From an uncultured archaeon (GTDB lineage Archaea > Asgardarchaeota > Lokiarchaeia > Sigyniarchaeales > SOKP01): a DNA stretch of 28,531 nt. Below, piece after piece: positions 3,342 through 26,774 of this stretch; the stretch's first letter is position 1, and each line of letters starts with the position of its first letter. The stretch spans positions 1 through 28,531 of the forward strand of contig CAZGJX010000048.1 of assembly GCA_964525635.1 (NCBI GenBank), written 5' to 3'. Below the pieces are notes generated by a model that saw only the letters and a program-made list of their open reading frames with translations, had not been told where the DNA came from and searched no databases. The position numbers and the translations under genes were made by a program.

Positions 3342-4172
3342 TTATATTATCTGACCACAATAATTTCCACCAAAAGGTCTTTTAGAAATTGGTTTTATTA
3401 CTTTAAATGGTTTTTTTCCTATTAACTCATAGGGAATATTAAAAATCTCACAGAATTCTTTTAAATATGATTCCACTTGTTTTAAATCCTCCTCACATGG
3501 TTCAAAAAGCTTAGCTCCAACTCCTAATTTATCCTCTAAATCCTCTTCAGTTCTTAAAAAGATTTTCCCTCTATGTATCCCTGTACCCAATTCATTTCCA
3601 CATATGGAACTTTCATTTTCAATAATATTACCATCAGGAAGGAATTTCAGACCAAGAATTATAATAAGACCTCCAGCCATGTATTCTCCTAAGAAATCTC
3701 TAGCTATCCCCCCAACAATTATCACCGGATGTTTTCTTTCATATTCTTTAATATGGATTCCAACTCTATATCCAACATCTTTTTTTATATAAATTTTTCC
3801 ACCTCTAGCGGATAATCCAATGACATCTCCTCCATCTCCATGAATTATAATAGTTCCATCATTCATTGTATTTCCAGCTTGATCTTCACAACTTCCATTC
3901 ACGGTTATTTTAGGACCATCCATAAAAATGCCTAAATCATTACCAGGTACACCATTTATTTCAAATTCTAGATCTCCTTGAAGTGAAGCACCAATGAATC
4001 TCTGACCACAAACATCGTTTAAGATAATTTTTTTGTATCCTGAATTTACAGCTTCATGGATTTGTTCATTTAATGTTTTATATTCAATTGGTTCTCCATT
4101 AGGAGCGCTATTTATATTAATTATCTTATTATTTTGAATAGTTTTTCCCTTTTGTATTGTATTTTCAACCAT
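3342..4172 (-). CDS. gltB3: Glutamate synthase large-subunit domain 3 (GXGXG beta-helix), archaeal split type
   Basis: GQRFIG, GVPGNDLGIFMDG, GNTMNDG, GYRVGIH, DFLGEYMAGG, GTGIHRG repeats; 3 bp downstream of gltB2. Confidence 0.92.
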   Translation of the reverse strand: MVENTIQKGKTIQNNKIININSAPNGEPIEYKTLNEQIHEAVNSGYKKIILNDVCGQRFIGASLQGDLEFEINGVPGNDLGIFMDGPKITVNGSCEDQAGNTMNDGTIIIHGDGGDVIGLSARGGKIYIKKDVGYRVGIHIKEYERKHPVIIVGGIARDFLGEYMAGGLIIILGLKFLPDGNIIENESSICGNELGTGIHRGKIFLRTEEDLEDKLGVGAKLFEPCEEDLKQVESYLKEFCEIFNIPYELIGKKPFKVIKPISKRPFGGNYCGQII

Positions 4173-4175
4173 TTT

Positions 4176-5696
4176 TTATTCACCTGCATGTTTTACATTT
4201 AAAATTTCAGCTATTCTTGGATTTGGACCAATATAACGTAAACGATCCCTATTTGAACGTAGAGACTCAACAGAATCAATACCCATAGCACCAAGCACTT
4301 CTTTTAATTCTTCATTCCATGAATGAAAAAGATTGATGATTCGATTTCTAGCTACATCAATGTCAAGTCTTTTAACCAGATACTCTCTTTGACTGGCGAT
4401 ACCCCAACTACAGAGCCCCCTAAAGCATTGTTGACATACTCTACAGCCCATAGCAATTAGAACAGGCATTCCAACCATCCCCACATCTGCACCTAATGCT
4501 ATTGCTTTAATCAAGTCCGCAGAATATCGAATTGATCCTCCTGCTACAAGAGTTATTTGGTCTCTTAATCCTTCTTGACGTAATCGTTGATCAACTGATG
4601 CGATTGCCAATTCGATTGGTATTCCTGCATGATCTCTGATAATTCTTGGAGCTGCGCCAGTACCTCCTCTAAAGCCATCTAAGGTAAGAAAATCGGCTCC
4701 GCCTCTCACAATTCCTACTGCTATTGGAGCACTGTTATGTACAGCAGCGATTTTCACACCGATGGGAACTTTATACCTAGTTGCTTCTTTAAGAGCGGCT
4801 ATTAATTGAGCAAGGTCCTCAATAGAATAGATATCATGATGTGGATATGGACTTAAAGCATCAGATCCTTTGGGAATCATTCTTGTTTGGGATATAAGGG
4901 AATTCACTTTTTCTCCTGGTAGATGTCCCCCATGACCTGGTTTTGCTCCTTGTCCTATTTTAATCTCTAATCCTGCAGTATTTTGTAAATATTTAATATC
5001 TACACCAAATCTGCCAGATGCGACTTCTGTAATGATGTTTTTTCCATACTCATAAAAATCGGGATGTAAACCACCCTCCCCAGAACCTGCTAACACATTT
5101 AATTCATTTACTGCTTGATATATTGCCATACACGCATTATAGCTAATGGAACCAAGACTCATATGTCCGATCATCAATGGCATATCTATTTCAAAATGTG
5201 GTAAAAATTCCGTTTTGAGAGACACCTTATTAGGATCTTTAGGATCGACAGAAAAGTCAAGTTGTTGAGGTTTTCGACCAAAAAATATTTTTGTTTCAAT
5301 TGTTTCTCTCAATGGATCAATACTTGGATTCGTAACTTGACAGGCATCTAAAAGTAGATCATCAAATATTGATCTTATTGGTCTATCATTCCCAGTAGCA
5401 CTCAATAAAACACCTCCATTCCCTGATTGTGCCCATATAATATTTCGGATTCGTTGGGTGTAATTTCCATGTTGAGGTAAATAAGATTCATCTTTAACAA
5501 CTCGAATAGCTTTACCTGGACACATTGAAACACAGCGCTGGCAAGCAACACATTTTGAATCATCTGCTATAATTTTCTCGCCATTAAATGAAAGTGCTCC
5601 ATATGAGCAGTGAGAAACACATCTTTTGCATTTCTTACAATAATCTCTATCAATTTTAACCCTGAAATAAGTTGGACTTATATGCTGTAATGACAT
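4176..5696 (-). CDS. gltB2: Glutamate synthase FMN-binding subunit with N-terminal 2x[4Fe-4S] ferredoxin domain
   Basis: CKKCKRCVSHC and CVACQRCVSMCP; QVTNPSIDPLRE; MSLGSIS; SGEGG; VASGRFGV; EIKIGQGAKPGHGGHLPGEKV; HHDIYSIEDL; [3Fe-4S] motif GCRVCQQCFRGLC. Confidence 0.95.
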   Translation of the reverse strand: MSLQHISPTYFRVKIDRDYCKKCKRCVSHCSYGALSFNGEKIIADDSKCVACQRCVSMCPGKAIRVVKDESYLPQHGNYTQRIRNIIWAQSGNGGVLLSATGNDRPIRSIFDDLLLDACQVTNPSIDPLRETIETKIFFGRKPQQLDFSVDPKDPNKVSLKTEFLPHFEIDMPLMIGHMSLGSISYNACMAIYQAVNELNVLAGSGEGGLHPDFYEYGKNIITEVASGRFGVDIKYLQNTAGLEIKIGQGAKPGHGGHLPGEKVNSLISQTRMIPKGSDALSPYPHHDIYSIEDLAQLIAALKEATRYKVPIGVKIAAVHNSAPIAVGIVRGGADFLTLDGFRGGTGAAPRIIRDHAGIPIELAIASVDQRLRQEGLRDQITLVAGGSIRYSADLIKAIALGADVGMVGMPVLIAMGCRVCQQCFRGLCSWGIASQREYLVKRLDIDVARNRIINLFHSWNEELKEVLGAMGIDSVESLRSNRDRLRYIGPNPRIAEILNVKHAGE

Positions 5697-5697
5697 T

Positions 5698-6891
5698 TTA
5701 AACCCCCATAACAGATAATTGTATTTTTTCTAAAGGTTTTTCCAAACCATTATATAATAAACCTTCCCCTACACGTGCGATAATTGCTGTACCACTTTTT
5801 GGATGCCAGATCTCACTAAATTCATATTTAAATTCTTCATTAAGCATAAGTCTCTTGAAACTAGCCTCCTCACTACTTAGGTAAATGGTGTTTTCATCTT
5901 CAGATGCAGCAGCGACTAATGGTCTTAATTTCTTTCTATCTGATAATCCAATCATAGTTGAAGTGGGGTCGTTATATCCTATAACGACTGAAAATGGACC
6001 ATTTAGCATCGCTGATCGATACGTTGCTCTAATATTTTTTAATGCAATCTGATATTTTTTATCCATCTTTTTAATTTCATCAAATAATGGTGGAGCTAAC
6101 GCTAAATTTGCTATTGGTAATGGTAATTTATGTCTTCTAACTAATAAATCAAATAAATATGCAATAACTTCAGTATCCGTAAATAATGTGCATTTATATC
6201 CAAAGGATTCTAGATATCTTTTATTTGTACCATAAGATGTTATTTCACCATTATGTACCACTGATGTACCCAATAAATTAAATGGATGTGCTCCGCCCCA
6301 CCATCCTGGGGTATTTGTTGGAAATCTACTATGAGCAAGCCACATATGTGCTTTATAATCTTTTATATTATAAAATTCTGCGATTTCATGAGACCATCCA
6401 TTTCCTTTGAATACTCCCATATTTTTTCCAGAAGACATTATAAATGCTCCATTAAAATGTTCATTTATTTGCATTACTAAATTTACTATTTGTTCATCGT
6501 TAGAAATACTTTTCATCTGTTTTGGTTCATAAAAAACTCTCCAAATAATTGGAGGATTATCAATATTACTAGGTGTTTTTGTAGGGATAGGTTCTGAATG
6601 AATAATATAACCTATTTTCTCAAGATGAGATAAGACTTTTTCTTTAATTTGCTCAGTATCAAATAAAAAATGAAGTGCATAATAATCTTTATAATTTGGA
6701 TATATTCCATAACCAGCAAAACCAGCTCCTAATCCATTTTCTCTATCATGTAGGATACATAACATATCAATTACTTTAGATCCACTATCACGTTTTCCAT
6801 CAATGTTAAGATATCCAGAAATACCACATCCATCAAATATCCTCTGATTTCGAAAAATTTCAGGTAGACTTGTATAATTCTCCCATTTCAT
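5698..6891 (-). CDS. gltB1: Glutamate synthase glutamine amidotransferase subunit (class II/Ntn)
   Basis: DGCGISG (Cys22 is the probable mature N-terminal nucleophile after a 21-aa propeptide), NGLGAG, AHSRFPTNT, HPF, VVHNGEITSY, TDTEV, DR-x2-LRP. Confidence 0.93.
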   Translation of the reverse strand: MKWENYTSLPEIFRNQRIFDGCGISGYLNIDGKRDSGSKVIDMLCILHDRENGLGAGFAGYGIYPNYKDYYALHFLFDTEQIKEKVLSHLEKIGYIIHSEPIPTKTPSNIDNPPIIWRVFYEPKQMKSISNDEQIVNLVMQINEHFNGAFIMSSGKNMGVFKGNGWSHEIAEFYNIKDYKAHMWLAHSRFPTNTPGWWGGAHPFNLLGTSVVHNGEITSYGTNKRYLESFGYKCTLFTDTEVIAYLFDLLVRRHKLPLPIANLALAPPLFDEIKKMDKKYQIALKNIRATYRSAMLNGPFSVVIGYNDPTSTMIGLSDRKKLRPLVAAASEDENTIYLSSEEASFKRLMLNEEFKYEFSEIWHPKSGTAIIARVGEGLLYNGLEKPLEKIQLSVMGV

Positions 6892-8237
6892 GTTTGACTT
6901 TCCTCTTTAATTTTTTTTAATAATTTTAATAAATCATCAAGTTGCGGTTTATTTGAATCAAGACCAACCCTTTTTCGAGCTGATTTTGAAAACATTGCAA
7001 CAGTTCCCATTTTTCTAAATGATTCAAATTCGCGTTCAAATCCTTTTACAATAAATCCTCTTTCTTTTGCGAGATTACGAAGAATAGTAAATATTTCTAC
7101 TAATCCTATTTTAGATGGACATAATTCATAACAAACATAGCAGTCTAAACACATCCAAATGCTTGGATCTTTTATAATCTGTTCAATTTTTCCATCTAAA
7201 ATATCACCCACTATTTTATTTGGATCAAAACTAGTAATTTTTGCAACAGGACAATCATTATTGCATGCTCCACATGCTTTACATTTTTTTAAAAACTCTA
7301 TATCAAAATAATCTTTAATCTCATCATTTCTTCTATGGATAGAATCTATTTTTTTAAAAATGATATCAACTGGAGTCCTGTGAAACTTTTTAATAATATC
7401 TTTTATTTCAATTCCCAAAGCTATACATAACAATTCAGAATAATATAATACAGGAATATCATAATTATAATCAATTTTCTTTAATTCTTGTTGAAGGTGA
7501 TCAAATTGAATAAAACATTGTGGGCACCCTACCACAATGCAATCTATTCTATATTCTTTCATTGCTTCCAATTTATTTTGAATCATCTCCAAAGCAGAAT
7601 CGGGATTTCCTGCTCTTTCTAGACTTCCTCCACAACAATCCATTTTTCTATCATATTCTATACTTTTAGCTCCTAAATCTTCAATTAAAGAATCAAATAT
7701 ATGGGGCTCCATAGGATCATCCATTTGAATCTTATTACTCGGACGAAGGAAATGACATCCATAATGAACAGCTACCCTCAATCCATTTAAAGGATATTGT
7801 ATATTATCTTTTATTGTATGTTTTCCTAATTTATGAAAAAATTCAACTAAATGAAATACATCAATTTTACCAGAGACATTTAAATCAATATCTCCAAGAT
7901 ATTTATTCATTTCATCACGAAAATTGGGATTTGCTTTTATTTCACTTCTAATACCTTTTAAGGTCTCAAAACAACCATTACATGGAGTTAGAATACTTTC
8001 TTCTTCTTTCTCTGCTAATGCTAGGTTTCTTGATGCAGTTATTGAATAAATAAGCTCATTTGAATTTTTTATACCATTTGGTTCAGGACAACATGAAAAA
8101 TGAGGATTAGGATCTGAAATATTAATTCCAAAAAATTCTAATATTTTTCTAATTGAAACTTCAATAAAAGGGAGCCTATAACTAATAACACATCCAGGAA
8201 ATAACGTTACTTTTTGTTGAATTATATTTAACACCAA
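6888..8237 (-). CDS. hdrBC: Heterodisulfide reductase HdrB::HdrC fusion protein
   Basis: Two CCG domains (FPGC...SCCPEP...RNL...TPCNGC; HYGCHFLRP...DCCGG...GCPQC...QFD) followed by HdrC-type CKACGACNNDCP and IWMCLDCYVCYELCP. The stop overlaps the gltB1 start (ATGA, 6888-6891). TTG or GTG start uncertain. Confidence 0.92.
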   Translation of the reverse strand: MVLNIIQQKVTLFPGCVISYRLPFIEVSIRKILEFFGINISDPNPHFSCCPEPNGIKNSNELIYSITASRNLALAEKEEESILTPCNGCFETLKGIRSEIKANPNFRDEMNKYLGDIDLNVSGKIDVFHLVEFFHKLGKHTIKDNIQYPLNGLRVAVHYGCHFLRPSNKIQMDDPMEPHIFDSLIEDLGAKSIEYDRKMDCCGGSLERAGNPDSALEMIQNKLEAMKEYRIDCIVVGCPQCFIQFDHLQQELKKIDYNYDIPVLYYSELLCIALGIEIKDIIKKFHRTPVDIIFKKIDSIHRRNDEIKDYFDIEFLKKCKACGACNNDCPVAKITSFDPNKIVGDILDGKIEQIIKDPSIWMCLDCYVCYELCPSKIGLVEIFTILRNLAKERGFIVKGFEREFESFRKMGTVAMFSKSARKRVGLDSNKPQLDDLLKLLKKIKEESQT

Positions 8238-8724: not shown

Positions 8725-10374
8725 ATGACAAAATTTTCAATGGTAACTCACAGATCTTCAATGATAGGTACAAGAACTCGAGTAGAAGATTCATGTGAAT
8801 CGGGTTTATGTCCAATATGTACATATGATTGTCCTGTATTTTGTGAGGTTAGTAAAAGTGCCCTTAGAGGTCGTGAAGTACTTTATCCTATGAGAGAATA
8901 CTTTGGGAATTCTACAGCAGGGACTCCAAAAGATTTTGGTTTTTCTTATGGAGATTTTCAAATACAATTTGAGGTTAGAGGAGCAAAAGGCCTTGATAAA
9001 GTTGATGAAGATACTGTAATCTTTCCAAACGTAGATATTTCAACAATGTGGGGAAATATACCACAAAAAGTTCCACTTGTAATCGCTGGTCTTGGTAGTA
9101 CATATGTAGCTAAAAGAAACTGGGATGGATTAGCTATGGGTGCTGCACTTGCAGGTGCTAGTATAACTGTCGGTGAAAATGTAGTTGGAATGGATTCAAA
9201 TGCAAAATTTAATTCAAGTGAAAAATATCCAAAAGTTATTGATACTGAGGATATGAAATATAGAGTAGAAGCATACAGGGAATTTTGGGATGGTACCCAC
9301 GGGGATATTATTATTCAAAAAAATGTTGAAGATACTCGATTAGGTGTTTTTGATTATGTTTTATCTAAATTAGATTGTACTTCCTTGGAGATTAAATTTG
9401 GTCAAGGAGCAAAAGCAATTGGGGGAGAAGTGAGACTTAGTACTTTAGAGAGAGCTCAATTATTACAAAGTAGAGGATATTTAGTTATACCTGATCCTTC
9501 AAATCCGTCTGTAATAGAAGAATGGAATGCCGGACTAATTCCAGATTTTGAGAGACATAGTCGTGTAGGTTTATCATCAACAGAAGAAGTTTTAGAAGAA
9601 ATTGACCAATTAAGATCTGCTGGAGCTAAGAATTTATTTATAAAAACTGGAGCTTATCGACCTGCTGCGACTGCTTGGATTATTAGATTAGCTGTAGAGG
9701 GTAAGGTAGATGGTTTAACATTGGATGGGGCTGGTGGGGGTACTGGAATGAGTCCTGTAAGTATGATGAATGAAGGATCAATACCCACTACTTATTTACA
9801 AGCTTTGACAGTAGGATGTTTAGATATGATAAAGAAAAAAACTCCCAATGCAAAAATCCCAACAGTAGCAATTGCTGGTGGGCTATCTAATGAGACTCAA
9901 ATATTTAAATCATTAGCAATGGGTGCTCCATATGTTACTTGTATCGCAATGGCTCGTGCTCCAATAACAGCTGCTATGAAAGCAAAAAATGTTGGTAAAT
10001 GGATTAATGAAAAATCAATGTCTCGAGGAATGCTTAGTTCATTAGGTTTTCAAAAAGATAAAGATCCAGAAACTCTCACTTTAGCAGAAGCCTTTGTAGA
10101 ATATGATCAATTAAATAGAAAATTCAGTGATAAAGTGATCCCTCCTGCTGCTTTAGGTGTATATACTTATTTTATGAGTAAACTTGGAACTGGATTAAAA
10201 CAACTACTCGCAGGTGTTAGGAAATTTAAATTAAATCTTTTAACCCGAGATGATATTGCTTGTATTTCACAACGATCTATTGACGTATGTAATCATTGGG
10301 ATTTAGGTATAAAATCTCAAGAAGATTTAGACTTAGAGTTAGTAAAGAAAGAAATATATTCTGGAAATTACTAA
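8725..10374 (+). CDS. FMN-binding glutamate synthase family protein, non-canonical type (N-terminal Cys cluster, no amidotransferase)
   Basis: SGLCPICTYDCPVFCEV, RGREVLYP, GLGST, VGENV, NVEDTRLGV, EIKFGQGAKAIGGEV, FERHSRVG, KTGAYRP, DGAGGGTGMSP; clear paralog of 26775..28355. Confidence 0.88.
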   Translation: MTKFSMVTHRSSMIGTRTRVEDSCESGLCPICTYDCPVFCEVSKSALRGREVLYPMREYFGNSTAGTPKDFGFSYGDFQIQFEVRGAKGLDKVDEDTVIFPNVDISTMWGNIPQKVPLVIAGLGSTYVAKRNWDGLAMGAALAGASITVGENVVGMDSNAKFNSSEKYPKVIDTEDMKYRVEAYREFWDGTHGDIIIQKNVEDTRLGVFDYVLSKLDCTSLEIKFGQGAKAIGGEVRLSTLERAQLLQSRGYLVIPDPSNPSVIEEWNAGLIPDFERHSRVGLSSTEEVLEEIDQLRSAGAKNLFIKTGAYRPAATAWIIRLAVEGKVDGLTLDGAGGGTGMSPVSMMNEGSIPTTYLQALTVGCLDMIKKKTPNAKIPTVAIAGGLSNETQIFKSLAMGAPYVTCIAMARAPITAAMKAKNVGKWINEKSMSRGMLSSLGFQKDKDPETLTLAEAFVEYDQLNRKFSDKVIPPAALGVYTYFMSKLGTGLKQLLAGVRKFKLNLLTRDDIACISQRSIDVCNHWDLGIKSQEDLDLELVKKEIYSGNY

Positions 10375-13549: not shown

Positions 13550-14050
13550 TTGGCTCAAGATATTGCTTATAAATTGACAAGTAAAGATAAAAGTAGTATT
13601 TTAGACGTTTTAAATCATTATAACAGTGATAAAACTAATCTAATTTCAATTTTACAGGAAGTACAAAATTTATTTGGATTCTTGTCCCGTAATGTTATTT
13701 ATTTTCTTTCAAGAAAGCTGAAAATGTCTCCTGCTGAAATTTATGGAGTTGCTACTTTTTATACACAATTTAAATTTAAAAAAATTGGTAAATATTTAAT
13801 TGTATGCTGTGATGGGACCGCTTGCCACGTAAAAGGATCTACATTAATACTCAATTTTATAGAGGGATTCTTAGAAATTAAACCTGGAGAAACAACAAAA
13901 GATAAATTATATACTTTGGAATCAGTAGCATGTCTTGGATGTTGTGCTATTTCTCCCGTGTGTATAATAAATGGAAAAACATACGGAAATTTAACGACTA
14001 ATAAAATTAAGAGAATCCTAACGAAATTGGAAAAAAAAAGTAAGGTATGA
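13550..14050 (+). CDS. nuoE: NuoE/HydC-like [2Fe-2S] subunit (BfuC type)
   Basis: LISILQEVQ, YGVATFYTQF, CDGTACHVKG, CLGCCAISP; TTG start with GAAGTGA upstream. Confidence 0.92.
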   Translation: MAQDIAYKLTSKDKSSILDVLNHYNSDKTNLISILQEVQNLFGFLSRNVIYFLSRKLKMSPAEIYGVATFYTQFKFKKIGKYLIVCCDGTACHVKGSTLILNFIEGFLEIKPGETTKDKLYTLESVACLGCCAISPVCIINGKTYGNLTTNKIKRILTKLEKKSKV

Positions 14051-14057
14051 ATCAAAA

Positions 14058-15878
14058 ATGGAACTCAATTATCAAAAAAGAACTGTTTTAGTTTGCCGAG
14101 GTTCTGGTTGTAATTCTATGAATGCAGGGAGTATTTATACTTTATTAAATGAACTTATCCAAAAGAAAAATCTAACGGATTTTATTGATGTTAAATTAAC
14201 TGGTTGTCACGGGTTTTGCCAAGTGGGACCTACATTAATAATTCAACCAGATGATATATTATATATTCATTTAAATGTTAATAAAATAGAAGAAATTATT
14301 GATAATCATTTAATAAATAACAATATTGTTGAAAAATATCTTTACAAGGATCCAGAAAGTGGTGAATACATTAAAGACATCAACAATATTAGATTTTATA
14401 AAGAACAATATCCCATTATTACAGAGAAATGTGGAAAAATAAATCCAGAAGATATTAATGAATATATTACAAAGGGAGGATATGAATCATTTAAAAAAGC
14501 AATAAAAGAATTTAATCCTTTAGATGTCATTGAGGAAGTTAGAAGATCTGGACTGAGGGGTCGAGGTGGAGCTGGATTTTTAACTGGTCAAAAATGGAAA
14601 TTCTGTTATCAAGCACCTGGAAATCCTAAATATTTGATTTGTAATGCAGATGAGGGCGATCCTGGTGCTTTTATGGATAGGACAATATTAGAAAGTGATC
14701 CTCATAGTGTCATTGAAGGAATGCTTATTGGAGCATATGCAATAGGTGCATCTCAAGGATATGCGTATATCAGAGCAGAATATCCTCTCGCTATAAAAAG
14801 ATTTGAAATTGCTTTACATCAAGCAGAAGAAGCAGGTCTTCTTGGAAAGAATATTCTTAATACTAAGTTTAATTTCGATATAAAATTAAAAAAAGGAGCA
14901 GGGGCTTTTGTTTGTGGTGAGGAAACGGCATTAATGGCTTCAATTATGGGTAAAAGAGGTATGCCAAAACCAAAACCTCCTTATCCGGCAACTTCTGGAT
15001 TATGGAAAAAACCAACTAATATCAATAATGTAAAAACTTATGCAACAATTCCGAAAATTATTGAAAAAGGTGCAGAATGGTTCAGATCAATTGGAACTAA
15101 AGATGCTCCTGGAACAATTGTTTTAGCTTTGACAGGGAAAATTAACAATTCAGGATTAGTAGAATTACCATTAGGGTCATCTATTAGAAAACTAATATAT
15201 GATATTGGAGGGGGTATTCCAAATAATAAAAAATTTAAAGCAGTTCAAACAGGGGGACCTTCAGGGGGTTGCATTCCTGAAAAATTTTTAGATACTCCCT
15301 TAGATTATCAACATTTAACCGAACTGGGATCAATCATGGGTTCTGGAGGTTTTATTGTATTAGATGAAGATAGTTGTATGGTAGAACTAGCTCGATATTT
15401 TATTGAATTTACTCAAAATGAATCATGTGGTAAATGCACTCCTTGTAGAATTGGTACAAAAAGAATGTTAGATATATTAACTAAAATTACCAATGGAAAA
15501 GGTACTTTAGAGGATTTAAATGATTTGGAAAAAATAGCAAACATAGTTAAAAATACTAGTCTCTGTGGTTTGGGTCAAACGGCTCCAAATCCTGTTTTAA
15601 CAACTATAAAATATTTCAGAAAAGAGTATGATGCTCATATTTTAAATAAGAGTTGTCCAGCTTTAGTTTGCGAGAATTTAATCGAATATCATATAAATCA
15701 AGAATTATGTACTGGTTGTGGTTTGTGTAAAATAAATTGTGCCTCTAAAGCAATTGAAGGAGAACAGAAAAAACCTCATATTATTTCCCAGGAATTATGC
15801 ATTAAATGTGGTGTTTGTTTCAGTACATGTTCCTATAATGCTATATATAAAAAAACAAACGAGATTAAGAATGAGTGA
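14058..15878 (+). CDS. nuoF: NuoF/HydB-like FMN/NAD-binding subunit with electron-bifurcating (BfuB) architecture
   Basis: N-terminal thioredoxin-like [2Fe-2S] (CRGSGC...GCHGFC), SGLRGRGGAGF, NADEGDPGAFMDR, GAGAFVCGEETAL, ESCGKCTPCR...SLCGLG, DSCMV...HILNKSCPALVC, and two C-terminal [4Fe-4S] motifs. Confidence 0.95.
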   Translation: MELNYQKRTVLVCRGSGCNSMNAGSIYTLLNELIQKKNLTDFIDVKLTGCHGFCQVGPTLIIQPDDILYIHLNVNKIEEIIDNHLINNNIVEKYLYKDPESGEYIKDINNIRFYKEQYPIITEKCGKINPEDINEYITKGGYESFKKAIKEFNPLDVIEEVRRSGLRGRGGAGFLTGQKWKFCYQAPGNPKYLICNADEGDPGAFMDRTILESDPHSVIEGMLIGAYAIGASQGYAYIRAEYPLAIKRFEIALHQAEEAGLLGKNILNTKFNFDIKLKKGAGAFVCGEETALMASIMGKRGMPKPKPPYPATSGLWKKPTNINNVKTYATIPKIIEKGAEWFRSIGTKDAPGTIVLALTGKINNSGLVELPLGSSIRKLIYDIGGGIPNNKKFKAVQTGGPSGGCIPEKFLDTPLDYQHLTELGSIMGSGGFIVLDEDSCMVELARYFIEFTQNESCGKCTPCRIGTKRMLDILTKITNGKGTLEDLNDLEKIANIVKNTSLCGLGQTAPNPVLTTIKYFRKEYDAHILNKSCPALVCENLIEYHINQELCTGCGLCKINCASKAIEGEQKKPHIISQELCIKCGVCFSTCSYNAIYKKTNEIKNE

Positions 15879-18800
15879 TAATAATTTAAAAAAAGGTAAA
15901 ATATTCATAGATAATAAAGAAATAGATTTTATAGAAGGAGAAACTATATTAGAAGCAGCTAATAAGGCTGAAATCTATATACCCACTCTATGTTATATTA
16001 AAGGATTAGAACCCTATGGAGGGTGTCGTCTGTGTATAGTACAAATCGAAGGAATGAAGGGATATCCTCCTGCTTGTACGACCCCTGCTCAAGAAGGTAT
16101 GAAAATAAAAAATAATGATGATGAAATTTTAGATTTTAGAAAAGAGATATTTGAACTGTTGCTTAGTGAACATCCATATTCATGTCTAATTTGTTCAAAT
16201 AAAGAAAATTGTGAAAAAATCCGGGATAATGTTGATAAATTTGGGAGAATATTTGGATGTTTTACATGTGCTAGTAAAGATTCATGTGAACTCAGGAAAA
16301 TTGCAGAATATTTAGGTATTGAAGAGATTCCTTATGAATTAGAATATCATAATTATCCTCTCAAGAGAGATGATCCTTTTTTTGAAAAAGATTATAATTT
16401 ATGTATCCTATGTGGTAAATGCGTTAGAATATGTAATGATTTAAGAGGAGTTGGTGCTATAAATTTCATAAATCGAGGGCATAATACTCAAATTTCAACT
16501 GAATTTGATTTACTAAATGTTAATACAGATTGCCAATTTTGTGGTTCTTGTGTTGATATTTGTCCAACTGGAGCATTAAGTTCAAAAAATACAAAATGGG
16601 ATATAGGAAATACAGAAGCTAAGTCATCTGTATGTGGTTTTTGTAGCGTTGGATGTGGATTTGATTATTACTCCAGGCAAGGAGAATTATTTGAATCAAT
16701 ACCAAATAATGAAAATATAATAAATAAAGGTCATGGATGTGTTATTGGAAGGTTCTGTCCTCCTCAATTTAATAATGGAAGAGATAGACTTAAATATCCT
16801 TCAATAAAAGAAAATGGAGAATTAATTCCATCTGATTGGGAGAATATTTATTCTAAAATAAAAGAGAATTTAGAAAAATACGATCCTAAAGAAATTGCCT
16901 TTCTGGTATCACCTAATTTATCTAATGAATCTGCTTATTTATTAAATAAATTTGCTAATAGTGTTATTAAAACAGAGAATATTGCAATTATTTCTAATAA
17001 TAATTCTATTGATATATATTATAACTTATTAAAAAATAATCTAAATAAAGATTACTTATGTAGATCTATTCAAGATATTGAAAAAGCAGAATTATTAATA
17101 TTAATCAATACTAATATTCAGAAATCTCATCCTGTATTGTTTAATCATTTATTTAAAGCAAGAAAAAATGGATCCAAAATTATATCTCTTAATTTAAATA
17201 ATATCAAATCATCAACAATAACAAAGAGAATTTTAGACTATGAAATAAACTTCTCAAAAAAAGAACTTATTCTATTTTTATTAGAGTTATCAAAAAGATT
17301 ATCTGAAGGTATTAATGAATTTAAATTGGCGAATTTTGATTATAAATCGTTTTATAATTATATAAAAGATTTTAAATACAATGAAAAAAATCATAAGGAG
17401 AATGGATTAATTGATGATTTTATTAGTACTATAAAAAAATCAGAACAATCTAAAAGTATAATTCTAGTAGACTTAGACAGAAATTTATCGGATAATTATA
17501 TTGAGGATTTAATAGGAACTCTATTTAATTTATTAATTCTTTTAGATAATAAAATTGATCTAATTCCATTATGGCATTATGGAAATAAAGAAGGTGTATT
17601 TCAAAATATTTCATATAATATCAAACCGAAATCTATCAAAGATATTATAAATAATATAAAAAATAATCAAATAAAATTACTTTACCTTACTGAAAGATTT
17701 GAAAATCCTGAGATATTGAATAATATTGAATTTATCATATTACAAGATATTTATTCATCTAATAATTATGATTTAGCAGATATTATTTTACCTACTTGTA
17801 CATATTTAGAGGATTCTGGAACTTTTTTAAATGCTGAACTAAAAAGCCAAAATTTTCTTAAAATTGCTGATAGTAAAGGATATTCTAAACCTGATTGGCA
17901 AATTATAAGTGAATTAGGAAAAACCTTTGGAAATAATTATGTAAGAGATTTTTCATTTGATAATTCAAAAGATATCTATAAAGAATTGATGTTGGAGAAT
18001 CTCTATTTTAATGATGATTTAAATAGAGAAACTAAAAAGAATCTGAAATTTCATTTTCCCGATCTACAGAAGATTTATTTTAATGAAGATTTAGATTCAT
18101 TCGGTCTGAGATCTTTTGTTTATAGAGGTGAACCTATTTATAATCAAGTAGATGATTTAAGGGAGCTAATTAATTTTAATGAGTCTCTAAAAGATGATTC
18201 AGCTGATGAAATTAAAAAGCAAGAACAAATAAAAACTCAGTTTAAAGTATTATCTAATAAAGAAATAGTACCAAATACATTTGAGCTTATTGTTGAAGCT
18301 CCCTTAATAGCTAAGAAAGCAAAACCAGGAAACTTCGTCATTATAATGAAAAACCAAGAAAGTGAGAGATTACCAATGACTCTTTCAGATTGGAATATCG
18401 ATCAGGGATTAATAAAAATATATTATCAAGAAAAGGGGTTCTCTACAAGAGAATTAACTTCTCTTAAAAAAAATGATTATATTTTTAGTATTGTTGGTCC
18501 TTTGGGTAAAGAGTATCCAATCAAACATTATGGTACTGTATTATTAGGTGGGGGTTGCTATGGCAATGCTGCAATTTACCCTATAGGAAAAGCGTTAAAA
18601 GAAGCAGGTAATAAAATAATCATTATTTTAGAAGGAAAAAATAAGGATTTATTCTATTTGATAAACGAAATTGAAGAAATTTCAGATGAAATTATTTATT
18701 GTACTTCAGATGGCTCAAAAGGATTAAAAGGGAAGATAGATATTGGAATAAATTATGCACTTAATAAAGAAAAGAAAATTGATAGATGTCATTTTATTGG

Positions 18801-19113
18801 TTGTAATTATATGATGATGGATGCTTCAGAAAAAACGAAGATCTCTGGAAATATCCCAACAACTGTTTCTTTAAGTACTATTATGATTGATGGTACTGGT
18901 ATGTGTGGAGGATGTAGACTTTCACTAATTGAAAATGAAAAAGAAATAACAAAATTTGCATGTGTTGATGGGCCAATATTTGATGGTCATTCTATAAATT
19001 GGAGCGAATTAATTCATAGACAATATCGATTTAACTTTGATGAAACACAAATATATCAAACACATAGTTGTAAGTTAAAAGCTTTTATAAAAGAGGGAGA
19101 GAAAAATGAGTGA
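15871..19113 (+). CDS. Fusion: NuoG/FdhA-like Fe-S wire + degenerate molybdopterin-fold domain + NfnA (SudB/FNR-like) domain
   Basis: The true start is probably ATG 15871 (MSDNN), overlapping the nuoF stop; the ORF track start at 15739 lies inside nuoF. Motifs: IPTLC...GGCRLC...PAC, HPYSCLIC, CILCGKCVRIC, CQFCGSCVDICP, CGFCSVGC...GC-x2-GRF, ADIILP...EDSGTFLN...KPDWQII. From about 18241 NfnA: APLIAKKAKPGNF, ERLPMT, GPLG, DGTGMCGGCR, FACVDGP. Confidence 0.9.
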   Translation: MSDNNLKKGKIFIDNKEIDFIEGETILEAANKAEIYIPTLCYIKGLEPYGGCRLCIVQIEGMKGYPPACTTPAQEGMKIKNNDDEILDFRKEIFELLLSEHPYSCLICSNKENCEKIRDNVDKFGRIFGCFTCASKDSCELRKIAEYLGIEEIPYELEYHNYPLKRDDPFFEKDYNLCILCGKCVRICNDLRGVGAINFINRGHNTQISTEFDLLNVNTDCQFCGSCVDICPTGALSSKNTKWDIGNTEAKSSVCGFCSVGCGFDYYSRQGELFESIPNNENIINKGHGCVIGRFCPPQFNNGRDRLKYPSIKENGELIPSDWENIYSKIKENLEKYDPKEIAFLVSPNLSNESAYLLNKFANSVIKTENIAIISNNNSIDIYYNLLKNNLNKDYLCRSIQDIEKAELLILINTNIQKSHPVLFNHLFKARKNGSKIISLNLNNIKSSTITKRILDYEINFSKKELILFLLELSKRLSEGINEFKLANFDYKSFYNYIKDFKYNEKNHKENGLIDDFISTIKKSEQSKSIILVDLDRNLSDNYIEDLIGTLFNLLILLDNKIDLIPLWHYGNKEGVFQNISYNIKPKSIKDIINNIKNNQIKLLYLTERFENPEILNNIEFIILQDIYSSNNYDLADIILPTCTYLEDSGTFLNAELKSQNFLKIADSKGYSKPDWQIISELGKTFGNNYVRDFSFDNSKDIYKELMLENLYFNDDLNRETKKNLKFHFPDLQKIYFNEDLDSFGLRSFVYRGEPIYNQVDDLRELINFNESLKDDSADEIKKQEQIKTQFKVLSNKEIVPNTFELIVEAPLIAKKAKPGNFVIIMKNQESERLPMTLSDWNIDQGLIKIYYQEKGFSTRELTSLKKNDYIFSIVGPLGKEYPIKHYGTVLLGGGCYGNAAIYPIGKALKEAGNKIIIILEGKNKDLFYLINEIEEISDEIIYCTSDGSKGLKGKIDIGINYALNKEKKIDRCHFIGCNYMMMDASEKTKISGNIPTTVSLSTIMIDGTGMCGGCRLSLIENEKEITKFACVDGPIFDGHSINWSELIHRQYRFNFDETQIYQTHSCKLKAFIKEGEKNE

Positions 19114-20524
19114 TACAAAGAAAAAGAAAAGGCGCATTGATCTTCCAAGAAATAAAATGCCTGAACAAAATCCAAATTTAAGAAATAAAAATTTCAAGGA
19201 AGTTAATTTAGGTTATACTAATGAGATGGCGAAAGCAGAAGCAGAAAGATGCTTACAGTGCGAAAAACCTTTATGTGTTGAGGGTTGTCCTGTTAATATC
19301 AACATACCTGGATTCATTAAATTTATCAAAGAAGGTAATTTAAAAGCTTCTATTGAATGTATAAAAGATTATAATATATTACCTGCTGTATGTGGAAGAG
19401 TATGTCCTCAGGAAGTACAATGTGAGGGAAAATGTATTCTAGGTAAAAGATTCGAACCTGTAGCTATAGGGCATCTGGAAAGATATGTTGCTGATTGGGA
19501 AAGAGCTAATAAAATAAATGCTTGTCCTGAATGTAAATCTCCAAATAATATTAAAATAGCAATTATAGGATCTGGTCCTGCAGGAATTACATGTGCCGCA
19601 GAACTTGCTAAAGAAGGTTATGATATAACAATTTATGAGGCCTTTCATAAAGGTGGTGGTGTCCTTGTATACGGTATTCCTGAATTTAGATTACCTAAGG
19701 AAATCGTAGCAACTGAAATCAATACTCTGAAATCACTTGGAGTAAAAATAGAATATAATATGATAATAGGTAAAATCTTGACTATTGATGATTTATTTAA
19801 TATGGGATATAAAGCAATATTTATTGGTATAGGAGCAGGAACTCCAATATTCTTGAATATCCCAGGCTCGAATTTAAAAGGTGTTATATCAGCAAATGAA
19901 TATTTAACAAGGATAAATTTAATGAAAGCATATGACTTTCCAAATTATAAAACTCCTGTATCTTTAGGAAAATATGTTACTGTCATAGGGGGGGGAAATG
20001 TAGCTATGGATGCTGCTAGATCTGCATTAAGACTTGGAGCAGAAAAAGTTATTATTGTATATAGGCGTGCATTAGAACAAATGCCTGCAAGGAAAGAGGA
20101 AATCCATCATGCACAGGAAGAAGGAATTGAATTTAAGCTTCTCACGAATCCTTTGCGATTTATTGGAAATATCTATGGTAATGTTACAGAAATGGAAGTT
20201 ATAAAAATGAAGCTTGGAGAACTAGATGCATCAGGTAGAGCTAGTCCTATCCCTATAGAGAACTCAGAATTTCGTATAAAGACAGATTTAATAATTAATG
20301 CGATTGGAAATAATTCTAATCCATTATTAACTTCTACCTATCCTATATTAGAATTAAATAAATGGGGTAATATTGTAGCTGATGAGGATGGGAGGACTAA
20401 TGTTGATAGCATTTATGCGGGAGGTGATATCGTTACTGGTACAGCTACCGTAATTTCAGCAATGGGTGCTGGGAGAAGAGCAGCAAAGGCAATAAATGAA
20501 TATTTAATTGGCTTAAATAACTAA
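19106..20524 (+). CDS. nfnB: NfnB / SudA / GltD-like NADP(H)-binding Fe-S flavoprotein
   Basis: NFKEVNLGY, RCLQCEKPLCVEGCPV, CGRVCPQEVQCE, IGHLERY, GSGPAG, YGIPEFRLPK, GGGNVAMDAAR, YRR, AGGDIVTG; directly follows the NfnA domain with an 8-nt overlap. Confidence 0.9.
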   Translation: MSDTKKKKRRIDLPRNKMPEQNPNLRNKNFKEVNLGYTNEMAKAEAERCLQCEKPLCVEGCPVNINIPGFIKFIKEGNLKASIECIKDYNILPAVCGRVCPQEVQCEGKCILGKRFEPVAIGHLERYVADWERANKINACPECKSPNNIKIAIIGSGPAGITCAAELAKEGYDITIYEAFHKGGGVLVYGIPEFRLPKEIVATEINTLKSLGVKIEYNMIIGKILTIDDLFNMGYKAIFIGIGAGTPIFLNIPGSNLKGVISANEYLTRINLMKAYDFPNYKTPVSLGKYVTVIGGGNVAMDAARSALRLGAEKVIIVYRRALEQMPARKEEIHHAQEEGIEFKLLTNPLRFIGNIYGNVTEMEVIKMKLGELDASGRASPIPIENSEFRIKTDLIINAIGNNSNPLLTSTYPILELNKWGNIVADEDGRTNVDSIYAGGDIVTGTATVISAMGAGRRAAKAINEYLIGLNN

Positions 20525-20709: not shown

Positions 20710-23328
20710 CTATAAATCAAAATATAATATAGCTGTTTGATTTATGGTGTCAGCGTATATTCTCATTTTCTCTTGATTAGATTCATTATTATATTCAAAA
20801 ACTTTTATTATATCTTCATATTTTTCAACCTCAGGTAAAATTTTAGCTAAGATATTATCCATCTTTGACAATAGGTCCTTATTTAATATAGATTCTTTAT
20901 GTTTAGGATCGATAGCGATGTAAAGCATATCATTTTCAACAAGATCATTGAAAAAGTGAGTTCCTAATGAAGCGTCTGGAGTCAAATTCTCATGCATTTC
21001 AGCTATCTCACAAATAATTGATATTGTATTTATTTCACGAAAAGTCACAGGAATTCCTAAAGAAGGACTTGATGTAGCCCACCTACCAGGACCTGCAAGT
21101 AAAAAGATTTTATCTTCTTGTTTATCCATTTTTTGATTTAGTTTTCCTATTATTCTAGCAATACTACTTCTTTCTTGGTTTGGTAATTTACCATATAATT
21201 CTGGTACTACGTATATTAATCTATCAACCATTTTTGAAATCCCATTACCTATGATCGGTCCATTAGTTTTGAAAATAATATTTTGATCCTTTATATTTTT
21301 AGGTTCTTCTATTTTTTCAGTTTCACTTTTTATCTGAAATGGACGACACTGGAGAATATATATTTTATATTCATTATCTTTGATAAAATTAATAGCAAAT
21401 TCTATATCTATGGAATAATCATACACTTCTGATAATGTACGTAAAATATAATACATATCTTCTATTATGGAAGATTTTAATATTGATTTATCTAAATCAA
21501 GGAAATAATACAATTTTGTTTTTCCTAATTGTTTATATTTCTGTTCAATACTAAAATCACGAGTTCCAAAAAGCTCTATTGGGAGATTTGGTGAATTAAG
21601 AACAATATCATCGAAATATTTAGTGATAAATTTATTGTTTTTTAAGTCAATTACATCAACCTTACGTTGATTATATTTGCGTGTATCCAATAAACTAGTT
21701 TCTGGTCTCTTTTCTGGAATATTTAAAGCGATAATTCGAGTATAATCATCATCATATCTTTCTACTGCTCTAGTTCCTAAACCAAATACTAACCTAATCA
21801 AACCATCTTCGGGTCTTATATCTTTATTCCAAACAAAAGGATTATAAGAATAACCCACACCTGCTAATTGTGGATAAAATAGATTTCCATATAGTGAACC
21901 TGAAACTCTCTGAACTAGAATACCCATTTGTTCATCTTTATCTAATAAATTCCTTCTTAAGCGATAAAATAATGCTTCTTCACTTAAAGTACTTTTATAT
22001 ACCTCTCGAATAGCATTCATGAATTCATCGAGTCTTTGTTCTGGAGTACCTTGATTTGCAAGAAATATACTTTCATATTTTCCAGAAAAAGCATTATCAT
22101 AGGCATCTTCTAATAGACTACTACTTCTAACAATTATAGGAGATTGACCATAATAATTAAGAATTTTTTTAAATTGTTCAATAATATCATTTGGAAATTT
22201 ACCTTTCTCCATAATATTTCTTGCTTCTATTGCATATTTCTTAAAATTTTTATTTTTACGAATCTTATATCTGAGCCACCAACAATCATTAATAACAAGA
22301 TAAGTATAAAATACATCTGCACCTATAAAAAAAGAATCATGTTGCTCTAATTTATGATACCATTTCAGATCTTTTTTCTTTAAGATAGATTGAGCTAATA
22401 ACATTCCTAATGACTTACCACCAATTAAACCTGTCCCAATCATTCTCTTGCCAATATTTATCAAATCCTCTATATTAAAATATTCATTAGCGAGAGGATA
22501 TAATTGGGGATCTTGAGTCATTACCATTCGTATAATTTTCTCTTTAAGAAGATCTAAATCATCCTTTTTAATAGTTTTATTATCATAATTAGCATAACTT
22601 TGATAAGCTTCTCTAAATGTGCTAGTCCATATATCTTGTGTCTTTGATGTAAAATCTATCCATTGTGATGCATATTCTGTAAGTATTTCTGAGATTTTTG
22701 AACTTTTTAATACTGGAATAAATTCCTTGTTTTTCCATATATGGAGCATATACATAGTAGTAGAATGCCTTTTCCATACTTTGATTGGATGGATATAATA
22801 ATTTTTATCTTTTTTATAAACATCAATTATGATTTGGGCAGTGCTATGAATTTTAGATATAGTATATTCACTATGTCTATTTCTTATAAGTGCAAAAAAG
22901 GTTTCTGTTTCAAAATCGAAGAGATAAGGACATGTAAGCATAAAGAAGTTAGCAACCATTCGATCACTATACCAATCTACAGTTAAATCACTCAATGAAT
23001 CAAAAACATAAGCAGCTCTTTTCCCATATTTCTCAATAATAGTAAAAATTTCATCAATAAAATGTTCAAATCCCACCTCTGGATGAACTTCCAAAATGTC
23101 TGCTTTGACATTCTTAGGTATAAGTGAAATATGATTAGCAAATCTAAAATATATTAATTTACGATTCTGAGTATTTTTATCCTTACAAAATGCATGAACG
23201 AAAGGAATAAATTGATCTATTGACTTTATCTGAAACACGATATTATCTCCAGGTAAAATACCATGCAAGATGGTATCTAGACCAGTTATTCCAGTACTAA
23301 AAGTATTTGGATCCATCTTATCTTCCAA
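20710..23328 (-). CDS. PEP/pyruvate-binding (PPDK_N, ATP-grasp) domain protein with N-terminal degenerate KaiC/RAD55-like domain
   Basis: FSTGITGLDTILHGI (no Walker A) and YVFDSLS; then IGGKSLG, IVRSSSLLED...FSGKYES, MGILVQRV, GLGTRAV, DIEFA, ILQCRP; C-terminal GPGRW...LGIPV...SLGTHFF. The start may be ATG at 23316. Confidence 0.85.
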   Translation of the reverse strand: MEDKMDPNTFSTGITGLDTILHGILPGDNIVFQIKSIDQFIPFVHAFCKDKNTQNRKLIYFRFANHISLIPKNVKADILEVHPEVGFEHFIDEIFTIIEKYGKRAAYVFDSLSDLTVDWYSDRMVANFFMLTCPYLFDFETETFFALIRNRHSEYTISKIHSTAQIIIDVYKKDKNYYIHPIKVWKRHSTTMYMLHIWKNKEFIPVLKSSKISEILTEYASQWIDFTSKTQDIWTSTFREAYQSYANYDNKTIKKDDLDLLKEKIIRMVMTQDPQLYPLANEYFNIEDLINIGKRMIGTGLIGGKSLGMLLAQSILKKKDLKWYHKLEQHDSFFIGADVFYTYLVINDCWWLRYKIRKNKNFKKYAIEARNIMEKGKFPNDIIEQFKKILNYYGQSPIIVRSSSLLEDAYDNAFSGKYESIFLANQGTPEQRLDEFMNAIREVYKSTLSEEALFYRLRRNLLDKDEQMGILVQRVSGSLYGNLFYPQLAGVGYSYNPFVWNKDIRPEDGLIRLVFGLGTRAVERYDDDYTRIIALNIPEKRPETSLLDTRKYNQRKVDVIDLKNNKFITKYFDDIVLNSPNLPIELFGTRDFSIEQKYKQLGKTKLYYFLDLDKSILKSSIIEDMYYILRTLSEVYDYSIDIEFAINFIKDNEYKIYILQCRPFQIKSETEKIEEPKNIKDQNIIFKTNGPIIGNGISKMVDRLIYVVPELYGKLPNQERSSIARIIGKLNQKMDKQEDKIFLLAGPGRWATSSPSLGIPVTFREINTISIICEIAEMHENLTPDASLGTHFFNDLVENDMLYIAIDPKHKESILNKDLLSKMDNILAKILPEVEKYEDIIKVFEYNNESNQEKMRIYADTINQTAILYFDL

Positions 23329-23746: not shown

Positions 23747-24211
23747 ATGACGATAGATGAAACTTTTATTGATAAAACTATAGAAAAAAATAATAGGTCT
23801 CTTATCTCTATTTTACAGGATATACAAGAAAGTTATAATTATTTACCTGAAGAGTCTCTTATTAAAGTTGCAGAAAAAATGCAAATTCCGCTGATAGATG
23901 TATATTCAGTAGTTACATTTTACCATTCATTCTGTCTTATTCCTAAAGGTGAGTATATTATTACTGTTTGTTTAGGAACTGCATGTTATATACGAGGTGG
24001 AAAAAAAATAGTTGATTTATTAACAAAAGAATTGGAAATAATACCAGGGGAGACTACAAAAGATAATAAATTCACACTTGAAACAGTTAATTGCCTTGGT
24101 TGTTGTGCTATTGGACCTATCGTAAAAATAAATAATGAATATCATGGAGAGATGACTCCAAATAAGACAAAGAAACTTATAAAGTCCTTGAAGAGGGAAA
24201 AAAATGACTAA
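23747..24211 (+). CDS. nuoE: NuoE/HydC-like [2Fe-2S] subunit (second copy)
   Basis: LISILQDIQ, YSVVTFYHSF, VCLGTAC, CLGCCAIGP. Confidence 0.92.
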   Translation: MTIDETFIDKTIEKNNRSLISILQDIQESYNYLPEESLIKVAEKMQIPLIDVYSVVTFYHSFCLIPKGEYIITVCLGTACYIRGGKKIVDLLTKELEIIPGETTKDNKFTLETVNCLGCCAIGPIVKINNEYHGEMTPNKTKKLIKSLKREKND

Positions 24212-26042: not shown

Positions 26043-26056
26043 TTTGAGGGATATGA

Positions 26057-26755
26057 ATGCCAAAAATAAAAATTGATGGAATTGAGTTTGATTGTTCAGA
26101 AAATTCAACAATACTTGATGTCGCTAAAATATTAGGAATAGATATACCAACTCTCTGCTATCACGAGGGCCTTTCAAGATGGGGTGGCTGTCGTTTATGT
26201 ATTGTTGAAATAGGAAGAGATGAAAATACTAAACTAGTTTCCTCGTGTACATATCCTGTTCAAGAAGGTCTTATTGTTCGAACTGCAAGTAAAAGGGTTA
26301 TTAATGCAAGAAAAATGATACTTGAACTTTTAATTGCACAAAATCCAACTTCCAAGGTATTACAAGATCTTGCATCAAAAATAGGTTTAAAAGAGGTCAG
26401 ATTCAAACCAAAATGGGAAACTTGTATTTACTGTGGTTTGTGTGTAAGGATATGTAAAGAACAGATGATGGCAAATGCTATTGGATTTGTTAATAGAGGA
26501 AATAAGTTAAAAATAACTACCCCCTTTGATAAAAATTCGGAGGATTGTCGAAGATGTGGTGCGTGCATGTATATATGCCCAGCATGTACAATAAGATGTG
26601 ATGGCCCCAATCCAGAAAGCGTGTTATGTAATGGCTGTTACAATGCACTCCAACCTACATGTTTGGAAGTTTATGATAATTTTTCATGTTGGATGGGATT
26701 AAAAGGTGAATGTGGAACATGTGTAGATATATCAAAGAATCAAAAAAATAAATGA
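26057..26755 (+). CDS. Short NuoG/HoxU-like Fe-S subunit with Cys-rich C-terminal tail
   Basis: IPTLC...GGCRLC...SSC [2Fe-2S]; CIYCGLCVRIC and CRRCGACMYICP; no H-x3-C-x2-C motif; no catalytic domain; GAGGGA upstream. Confidence 0.88.
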   Translation: MPKIKIDGIEFDCSENSTILDVAKILGIDIPTLCYHEGLSRWGGCRLCIVEIGRDENTKLVSSCTYPVQEGLIVRTASKRVINARKMILELLIAQNPTSKVLQDLASKIGLKEVRFKPKWETCIYCGLCVRICKEQMMANAIGFVNRGNKLKITTPFDKNSEDCRRCGACMYICPACTIRCDGPNPESVLCNGCYNALQPTCLEVYDNFSCWMGLKGECGTCVDISKNQKNK

Positions 26756-26774
26756 ATAAAAGGAGATATGAAAA

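Follow-up and report, generated by a model that had tools for sequence, protein, structure and literature searches.

An hdrB::hdrC fusion heads a glutamate synthase operon

We analysed a 28,531-nt stretch of DNA (the window; contig CAZGJX010000048.1 of assembly GCA_964525635.1) from a Lokiarchaeia (Promethearchaeota) genome, G000, in which an hdrB::hdrC fusion precedes the three genes of a split glutamate synthase (GOGAT), gltB1, gltB2 and gltB3. The host is assigned to the Lokiarchaeia-type Asgard archaea because most close relatives carry the label Promethearchaeota. Accepted reductants of glutamate synthases are NAD(P)H and ferredoxin, and coenzyme F420 has been proposed. An earlier note on this DNA had suggested that HdrBC oxidises thiols and feeds the electrons into the GltB core. 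The tight coupling of the four genes and the intact CCG domains and HdrC clusters described there are confirmed at the level of open reading frames (ORFs), junctions and ligand motifs: all four ORFs (Table 1) are intact and follow each other with a 4-nt ATGA overlap (-4), a 1-bp gap and a 3-bp gap. Their Pfam domains are, in gene order, two CCG domains with a Fer4 dicluster; GATase_2; Fer4 with Glu_synthase; and GXGXG. Promoter-like matches in a promoter and terminator scan, based on a bacterial model and applied to this archaeal host, occur at chance level.

Table 1 Features of the hdrBC-gltB1-gltB2-gltB3 operon and the divergent gene beside it
Feature	Position	Strand	Evidence
hdrB::hdrC fusion, 449 aa; proposed electron-input subunit	6888-8237	(-)	Profile matches, AlphaFold2 model, dN/dS
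Part of hdrB::hdrC fusion	7347-8210	(-)	Residue roles from PMC13261682
HdrC-like 2x[4Fe-4S] part, aa ~313-444; C319/322/325/329, C363/366/369/373; fusion-specific acidic D328, D365	6906-7301	(-)	
gltB1, class II glutamine amidotransferase, 397 aa; nucleophile C22 behind short propeptide	5698-6891	(-)	
gltB2, 506 aa: N-terminal 2x[4Fe-4S] ferredoxin domain, flavin mononucleotide (FMN) barrel, CxxCxxCxxxxC cluster	4176-5696	(-)	
gltB3, GXGXG beta-helix subunit, 276 aa	3342-4172	(-)	
Stand-alone glutamate-synthase-like FMN protein, divergent, 487 bp from hdrBC	8725-10374	(+)	

The operon encodes the sole full GltB2 of the G000 genome and is the only complete glutamate synthase of this Asgard archaeon. 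As the earlier note had stated, domain scans find no hdrA or mvh gene among the window ORFs and no gltD or frhB gene in the operon; two qualifications apply, in that a GltD-family gene (19106-20524) lies within the window in a separate nuoE-nuoF-fdhA-like operon and canonical hdrABC-mvh clusters, with several hdrA genes, are present elsewhere in the genome. FrhB genes occur only on other contigs, and a glutamate dehydrogenase (GDH) is also encoded in G000.

The catalytic parts of GltB1 and GltB2 all look intact. Residues C22, R50, H187, R189, N214, G215 and D239 are invariant in 87 GltB1 sequences, as are K252, E293, the four cluster cysteines and the FMN-site residues in 86 GltB2 sequences. 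The FMN/2-oxoglutarate barrel motifs, the catalytic Glu loop and the iron-sulfur (FeS) cysteines of GltB2 align with those of GltBD and the ferredoxin-dependent enzyme Fd-GltS (1EA0, 1LLW) which, unlike the split enzyme, are built around a single 1500-aa chain and are reduced by free ferredoxin or, through GltD, by NADPH. Together with the glnA context described below, these residues lead us to predict the conversion of glutamine and 2-oxoglutarate to two glutamate as the activity.

The fusion retains the cluster ligands of HdrB and HdrC

Residues ~10-300 of the fusion match HdrB of solved structure and residues ~313-440 match HdrC. The AlphaFold2 model of the fusion (predicted local distance difference test, pLDDT, 87.9) aligns to HdrB chains with target-normalised template modelling (TM) scores of 0.92-0.93. 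The fusion has all ten non-cubane cysteines, His162 and both of the CxxCxxCxxxC motifs. Among 40 diverse fusions neither the ten cysteines nor the bridging histidine vary at any aligned position, and the equivalent of R14 is retained in 36; the cysteines, the histidine and one substrate-binding arginine remain conserved across fusions down to ~31% identity. Among Loki orthologues the fusion is under purifying selection, with ratios of nonsynonymous to synonymous substitution rates (dN/dS) of 0.05-0.17. The free tree requires several changes with respect to monophyly of the fusion family, and a single clade is not rejected (approximately unbiased test, p-AU 0.47).

Scored against profiles, the fusion misses both curated equivalog cut-offs (TIGR03288, 257 of 345 bits; TIGR03290, 87 of 160 bits) and scores far higher as HdrB (257 bits) than as any non-thiol CCG protein (at most 91 bits); TfrB matches at 81 bits. 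In 5ODR the coenzyme B (CoB) site is built from R14, R201, R240 and F233 (PMC13261682). The fusion studied here keeps the equivalents of R14 and R201, and carries Q at F233 and H at R240, a position that varies among methanogen HdrB too.

The fusion occupies the electron-input slot of gltB operons

We collected 102 distinct fusion sequences, 6 of which stop at contig ends. In all 96 loci with downstream DNA, three of them checked by hand, gltB1 lies directly downstream of the fusion, a count to be read with the relatedness of the host genomes in mind, since such loci are not independent. The hosts comprise Loki-, Hel- and Freyarchaeota, Ranarchaeia, one Halobacteriota metagenome-assembled genome (MAG), one Zixiibacteriota MAG and many Coriobacteriia, so that the adjacency, which could have been a peculiarity of this one genome, recurs in archaea and bacteria. 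Canonical split hdrC-hdrB loci, which this search also recovered, are often beside hdrA or mvhD and never beside gltB, and no hdrA adjoins the fusion at the fusion loci examined. Of 55 large fusion loci, 25 contain type I glnA, and genes for ANTAR, amt and PII recur. The stand-alone FMN protein of the 8725-10374 type lies near the operon in 8 of the 55, in both Loki and Coriobacteriia, and is possibly an accessory outside the core.

Among 301 Asgard genomes, gltB1 is present in 40: 32 with the fusion, 4 solely with an FeS and pyridine-nucleotide oxidoreductase pair, 3 without a partner gene and 1 truncated where its contig stops; all 32 fusion-bearing genomes have gltB1. The pair, an FeS (HydN/CooF-like) protein with an NAD(P)H oxidoreductase, occurs in five Asgard gltB operons without the fusion (G035, G039, G237, G068 and G058) that share the same core, with GltB2 50-55% identical; their input, unlike that of the fusion operon, is thus a pyridine-nucleotide flavoprotein pair. 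Because this NAD(P)H-type pair replaces the fusion in other gltB operons, the fusion occupies the slot of the electron-input module. The pair was not seen together with the fusion in any one operon; G058 holds both types of operon at separate sites. From this linkage the fusion is very probably a dedicated electron-transfer partner of glutamate synthase.

The GltD-family protein encoded in the window might, alternatively, supply electrons in trans, leaving the fusion incidental. It passes the TIGR01316 cut-off and has homologues 54-56% identical in Coriobacteriia hosts, but it is preceded by a PyrK/NfnA-like domain here and by an NfnA-like gene in bacteria, so that it looks like NfnB. As such a supply would also leave the linkage in 96 of 96 loci unexplained, we consider it extremely improbable.

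Signs of co-adaptation accompany the proposed partnership. GltB2 R25, within the first ferredoxin motif, is found in 86 of 86 fusion-linked copies, is absent from all five copies of the alternative-partner clade, which as one clade count as one event, and is lost in two genomes that have lost the fusion. In the fusion, position 328 is acidic in 98 of 100 sequences and position 365 in 92 of 100; at these sites Gly/Ala/Ser or Thr predominates in canonical HdrC. The pattern of R25 with D328 and D365 is compatible with a putative docking surface; the acidic residues may face R25 or the substrate cleft. The distances of fusion and GltB2 correlate (rho 0.64), which indicates joint travel of the genes only, and a complex prediction for the two proteins scored 0.00 and was used neither for nor against binding.

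Most bacterial hosts carry the fusion without a detected HdrA

The window by itself cannot decide whether the fusion works with HdrA, because G000 has its own hdrABC-mvh clusters. The cultured coriobacterium Parvivirga hydrogeniphila also has the operon (WP_267192256 and neighbours), flanked on one side by an ANTAR two-component system and on the other by a type I glnA, and the fusion is the only HdrB found in it; its genome has no match to HdrA (even at 1e-5), GDH or FrhB. FrhB is missing from G309. The bacterium grows lithoautotrophically without yeast extract, and quinones were not detected (PMC9686372). It is able to fix ammonia into glycine as well, which gives ammonia a way in besides GOGAT. 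The order to which it belongs is represented by 112 genomes: the fusion has a match in 101 of them, GltB2 in 99 and HdrA in 13. At least 88 Coriobacteriia genomes with the fusion have no HdrA match (E<=1e-40). Gene content thus indicates that the fusion does not require HdrA in its bacterial hosts. We also considered whether the operon adjoins an MgsABC N-methylglutamate synthase cluster; the P. hydrogeniphila neighbour passes the type I GlnA cut-off (541 of 429 bits) and fails that of type III (346 of 470).

These data remove most support from HdrA-dependent or quinol-dependent readings. Were the fusion to join an HdrA encoded elsewhere in a bifurcating HdrABC-type complex, and to be only co-regulated with glutamate synthase or to feed it indirectly, the several hdrA genes of G000 could provide the partner; these are, however, already paired with hdrB and hdrC genes of their own, and the many HdrA-free Coriobacteriia make the arrangement very unlikely. 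The earlier note had named HdrA as the partner that would speak against its proposal, and at the level of genome content HdrA is dispensable in bacterial hosts (13 versus 101 of the 112 genomes). An SdhE-like role, in which the CCG domains serve as a membrane anchor and electrons come from quinol, could be read from the SdhE anchor being the second-best NCBIfam match (143 bits, cut-off 500), but no strongly hydrophobic helix is found in the fusion, the cultured host has no detected quinones and the energy gained from menaquinol would be minimal (see below); this, too, is extremely improbable. The part of the earlier proposal that made HdrBC the electron input therefore stands as a dedicated GltB1-3 partner in the input slot, whereas oxidation of thiols would follow from the intact non-cubane sites. 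A dedicated, HdrA-independent electron-input subunit for assimilation is most likely what the fusion represents.

Proposed mechanism, direction and donor

The best explanation of these findings, and one that we consider probable, is a four-subunit, soluble, biosynthetic glutamate synthase with HdrBC as thiol-fed input. GltB1 would hydrolyse glutamine, the ammonia would pass through GltB3 to the FMN site of GltB2, and 2-oxoglutarate would be reductively aminated there by standard chemistry, for which the catalytic residues are conserved. The two non-cubane clusters of the fusion would oxidise two thiols, or one dithiol, to a disulfide, and the electrons would run through the HdrC clusters, the GltB2 ferredoxin domain and the GltB2 FeS cluster to FMN, with neither HdrA nor bifurcation. 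We infer the physical complex, the thiol oxidation, the electron path and the direction of the four-subunit enzyme from the data above; thiol chemistry is suggested because the non-cubane ligands are invariant, and on these grounds the synthase is probably thiol-fed.

The couple (glutamine + 2-oxoglutarate)/2 glutamate lies at about -0.07 V from textbook values. With thiol donors at -0.14 to -0.29 V, we estimate a standard Gibbs energy (dG0') of -14 to -43 kJ/mol (potentials from PMC12054007 and textbooks), in keeping with the thermodynamic plausibility claimed earlier; the potential of the coenzyme M (CoM)/CoB couple itself has been revised from -138 to -281 mV (PMC12054007). For menaquinol as donor, the estimate is only about -1.5 kJ/mol.

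A catabolic or sink role would reverse the direction, the complex oxidising glutamate or draining electrons from GltB2 while reducing a disulfide; HdrB is normally a disulfide reducer and Lokiarchaeia are amino-acid fermenters. The reverse reaction would, however, run 14-43 kJ/mol uphill, the operon has glnA, amt, PII and ANTAR genes around it, and a GDH is available to G000 for catabolism but missing from the autotrophic host, all of which makes such a role highly improbable and assimilation much more likely.

CoM/CoB is improbable in this host because mcrA is lacking and the equivalents of F233 and R240 are gone, and we give it very little weight; mcrA was not found in G000 (100% complete), G309, G075 or G058 and was found only in G310. 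The donor may vary among hosts, since the fusion copy of the Halobacteriota MAG, which carries several MCR-like genes (alkyl-CoM-reductase-type), retains R14, F233 and R240. Our leading guess, put forward as a candidate only, is a protein-bound dithiol such as dihydrolipoyl-GcvH; GcvH is present in four of five hosts examined, and DsrC was not found in five hosts. We lean, by a narrow measure, towards an HdrA-independent HdrBC that oxidises a thiol other than CoM/CoB, possibly a lipoyl protein, as a fourth class of glutamate synthase electron input that would serve ammonium assimilation in Asgard archaea and anaerobic bacteria.

Observations that weigh against a thiol-fed enzyme

Several observations weigh against this interpretation or against an obligate role of the fusion. 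gltB1-3 occurs without it in G105, G199, G234, G033, a Methanomassiliicoccales MAG and L092, absences that the GltB2 tree resolves into about five separate events (G033 and some of the MAGs are incomplete). In G105 (100% complete) a decayed C-terminal remnant of 68 codons with two stops lies upstream of intact gltB1-3 (L212:7148-7351). After fusion loss in G105 and G234, GltB2 evolves faster, which in itself favours the proposed partnership, yet it does so still under purifying selection (dN/dS 0.136 versus 0.035-0.089; relative-rate chi2 >5 in four of five Loki comparisons). A domain-wise rate test maps no docking site, because the extra changes are scattered over the whole protein and not confined to the ferredoxin domain. 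As fusion-less gltB1-3 remains under purifying selection, the GltB core can probably use another donor, e.g. ferredoxin or canonical HdrBC in trans, and to judge from these genomes the HdrBC subunit is not strictly obligatory. In addition, the fusion scores under the curated HdrB cut-off (257 versus 345 bits), and the CoB pocket appears conserved only in part. GcvH was not found in the Halobacteriota host, none was found near the fusion loci with two GcvH queries, which a divergent LbpA could escape, and no thiol-carrier or disulfide-recycling gene was seen to recur beside the operon.

The same losses bear on a dedicated but non-thiol role, in which GltB1-3 is driven by ferredoxin and HdrBC serves as an FeS relay, a dock or a buffer for electrons, or else receives them from a non-thiol carrier. 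Retention of a conserved gltB1-3 in about five lineages that lack the fusion fits such a role, as do the ferredoxin domain of GltB2 itself and the presence of CCG domains in the non-thiol enzymes GlpC, GlcF and LdhH. A mere relay would sit poorly with the conservation of the ten non-cubane cysteines, the bridging histidine and the substrate-binding arginine in distant fusions, and with profile scores far above those of non-thiol CCG proteins. We therefore regard a non-thiol role as rather unlikely, and assign it no lower probability because the core can probably use another donor.

Comparison with known systems

Like methanogen HdrB and HdrC (5ODC/5ODR, 7BKB, 8RVU, 9SFI), the fusion has the characteristic fold, ten CCG cysteines, a bridging histidine, two cubane motifs and equivalents of R14 and R201. 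Unlike these proteins, it joins the parts in B-then-C order, is tied to gltB1-3, occurs mostly without HdrA in bacterial hosts, lacks the F233 and R240 equivalents here, has a loop behind the second CC that is one residue shorter, carries extra acidic residues beside one HdrC cluster and is proposed to run in the oxidative direction. With scores under the cut-offs, bacterial hosts that mostly lack an HdrA partner, and no MCR here, the fusion is not a member of the CoB-CoM HdrABC family.

A functional precedent is the methanogen thiol:fumarate reductase TfrAB, whose CCG domains take electrons from thiols for a biosynthetic reduction. In TfrAB, by contrast, the FeS domains come before the CCG domains, and electrons pass from CoM-SH and CoB-SH to fumarate at a flavin adenine dinucleotide (FAD) subunit; its sequence similarity to the fusion is also far weaker. 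The sHdr-LbpA system of sulfur oxidisers likewise links HdrB-type proteins to lipoate-bearing proteins instead of CoM/CoB; it needs HdrA, LbpA and sulfur transferases, whereas the fusion loci have no GcvH-like gene found nearby. The FrhB-bearing split glutamate synthase (MTH193; PMC3087415, PMC9012536) resembles the operon in combining a three-gene GltB core with an exchangeable fourth gene for electron input, which here, in contrast, encodes a CCG/ferredoxin protein without an FAD/F420 site; the F420-dependent enzyme is itself putative and not yet proven by purification (PMC3087415, PMC9012536).

A search of the open literature, with most subscription journals outside its range, found no description of an HdrBC-glutamate synthase pairing, and the operon is apparently an undescribed variant of glutamate synthase, real and widely conserved. 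If true, the proposal would add a new reductant to the main route of ammonium assimilation and reveal a substrate of Hdr-type proteins outside methanogens, offering a handle on what HdrB-type proteins turn over where CoM and CoB are lacking. With its lone HdrB and a simple read-out, glutamate formation, P. hydrogeniphila makes donor screening directly feasible.

Other genes in the window and in related genomes

The FMN protein divergent from the operon (8725-10374) is 44% identical to a second stand-alone glutamate-synthase-like FMN protein in the window (26775-28355) and only ~26% identical to GltB2, over part of the barrel. The latter gene closes a plus-strand cluster (23747-28355) of a nuoE-like gene, a nuoF-like gene and a gene for a short 2Fe-2S/4Fe-4S subunit that lacks the H-cluster domain; the cluster looks like a BfuABC-type module partnered by an FMN enzyme; the Bfu survey makes no mention of glutamate or GltB (PMC9304861). 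A further plus-strand cluster (13550-20524) encodes nuoE-nuoF, a subunit resembling molybdopterin oxidoreductases with a fused FeS domain of PyrK/NfnA type, and the NfnB/GltD-family gene, an apparent Bfu-Nfn hybrid. On the minus strand, 20710-23328 encodes an 872-aa protein whose sole domain match is PPDK_N and whose homologues adjoin the operon in L033, L086, L142 and L211; three ORFs at 629-2931 (339, 238 and 178 aa) have no Pfam or NCBIfam match.

Elsewhere in G000, HdrA matches at C109:8395-10308 and C87:9839-11746 contain one and two in-frame TGA codons, respectively, possibly encoding selenocysteine. At L168:861-1202 a GcvH-like gene precedes a canonical hdrC-hdrB pair by ~3 kb. Two Loki genomes (L083:6776-13753, L084:3401-10180) carry ~800-aa GltB2-like and GltB1-like genes followed by two genes that, judged by their N-termini, resemble subunits of electron-transfer flavoprotein, an arrangement that is possibly another variant of electron input.

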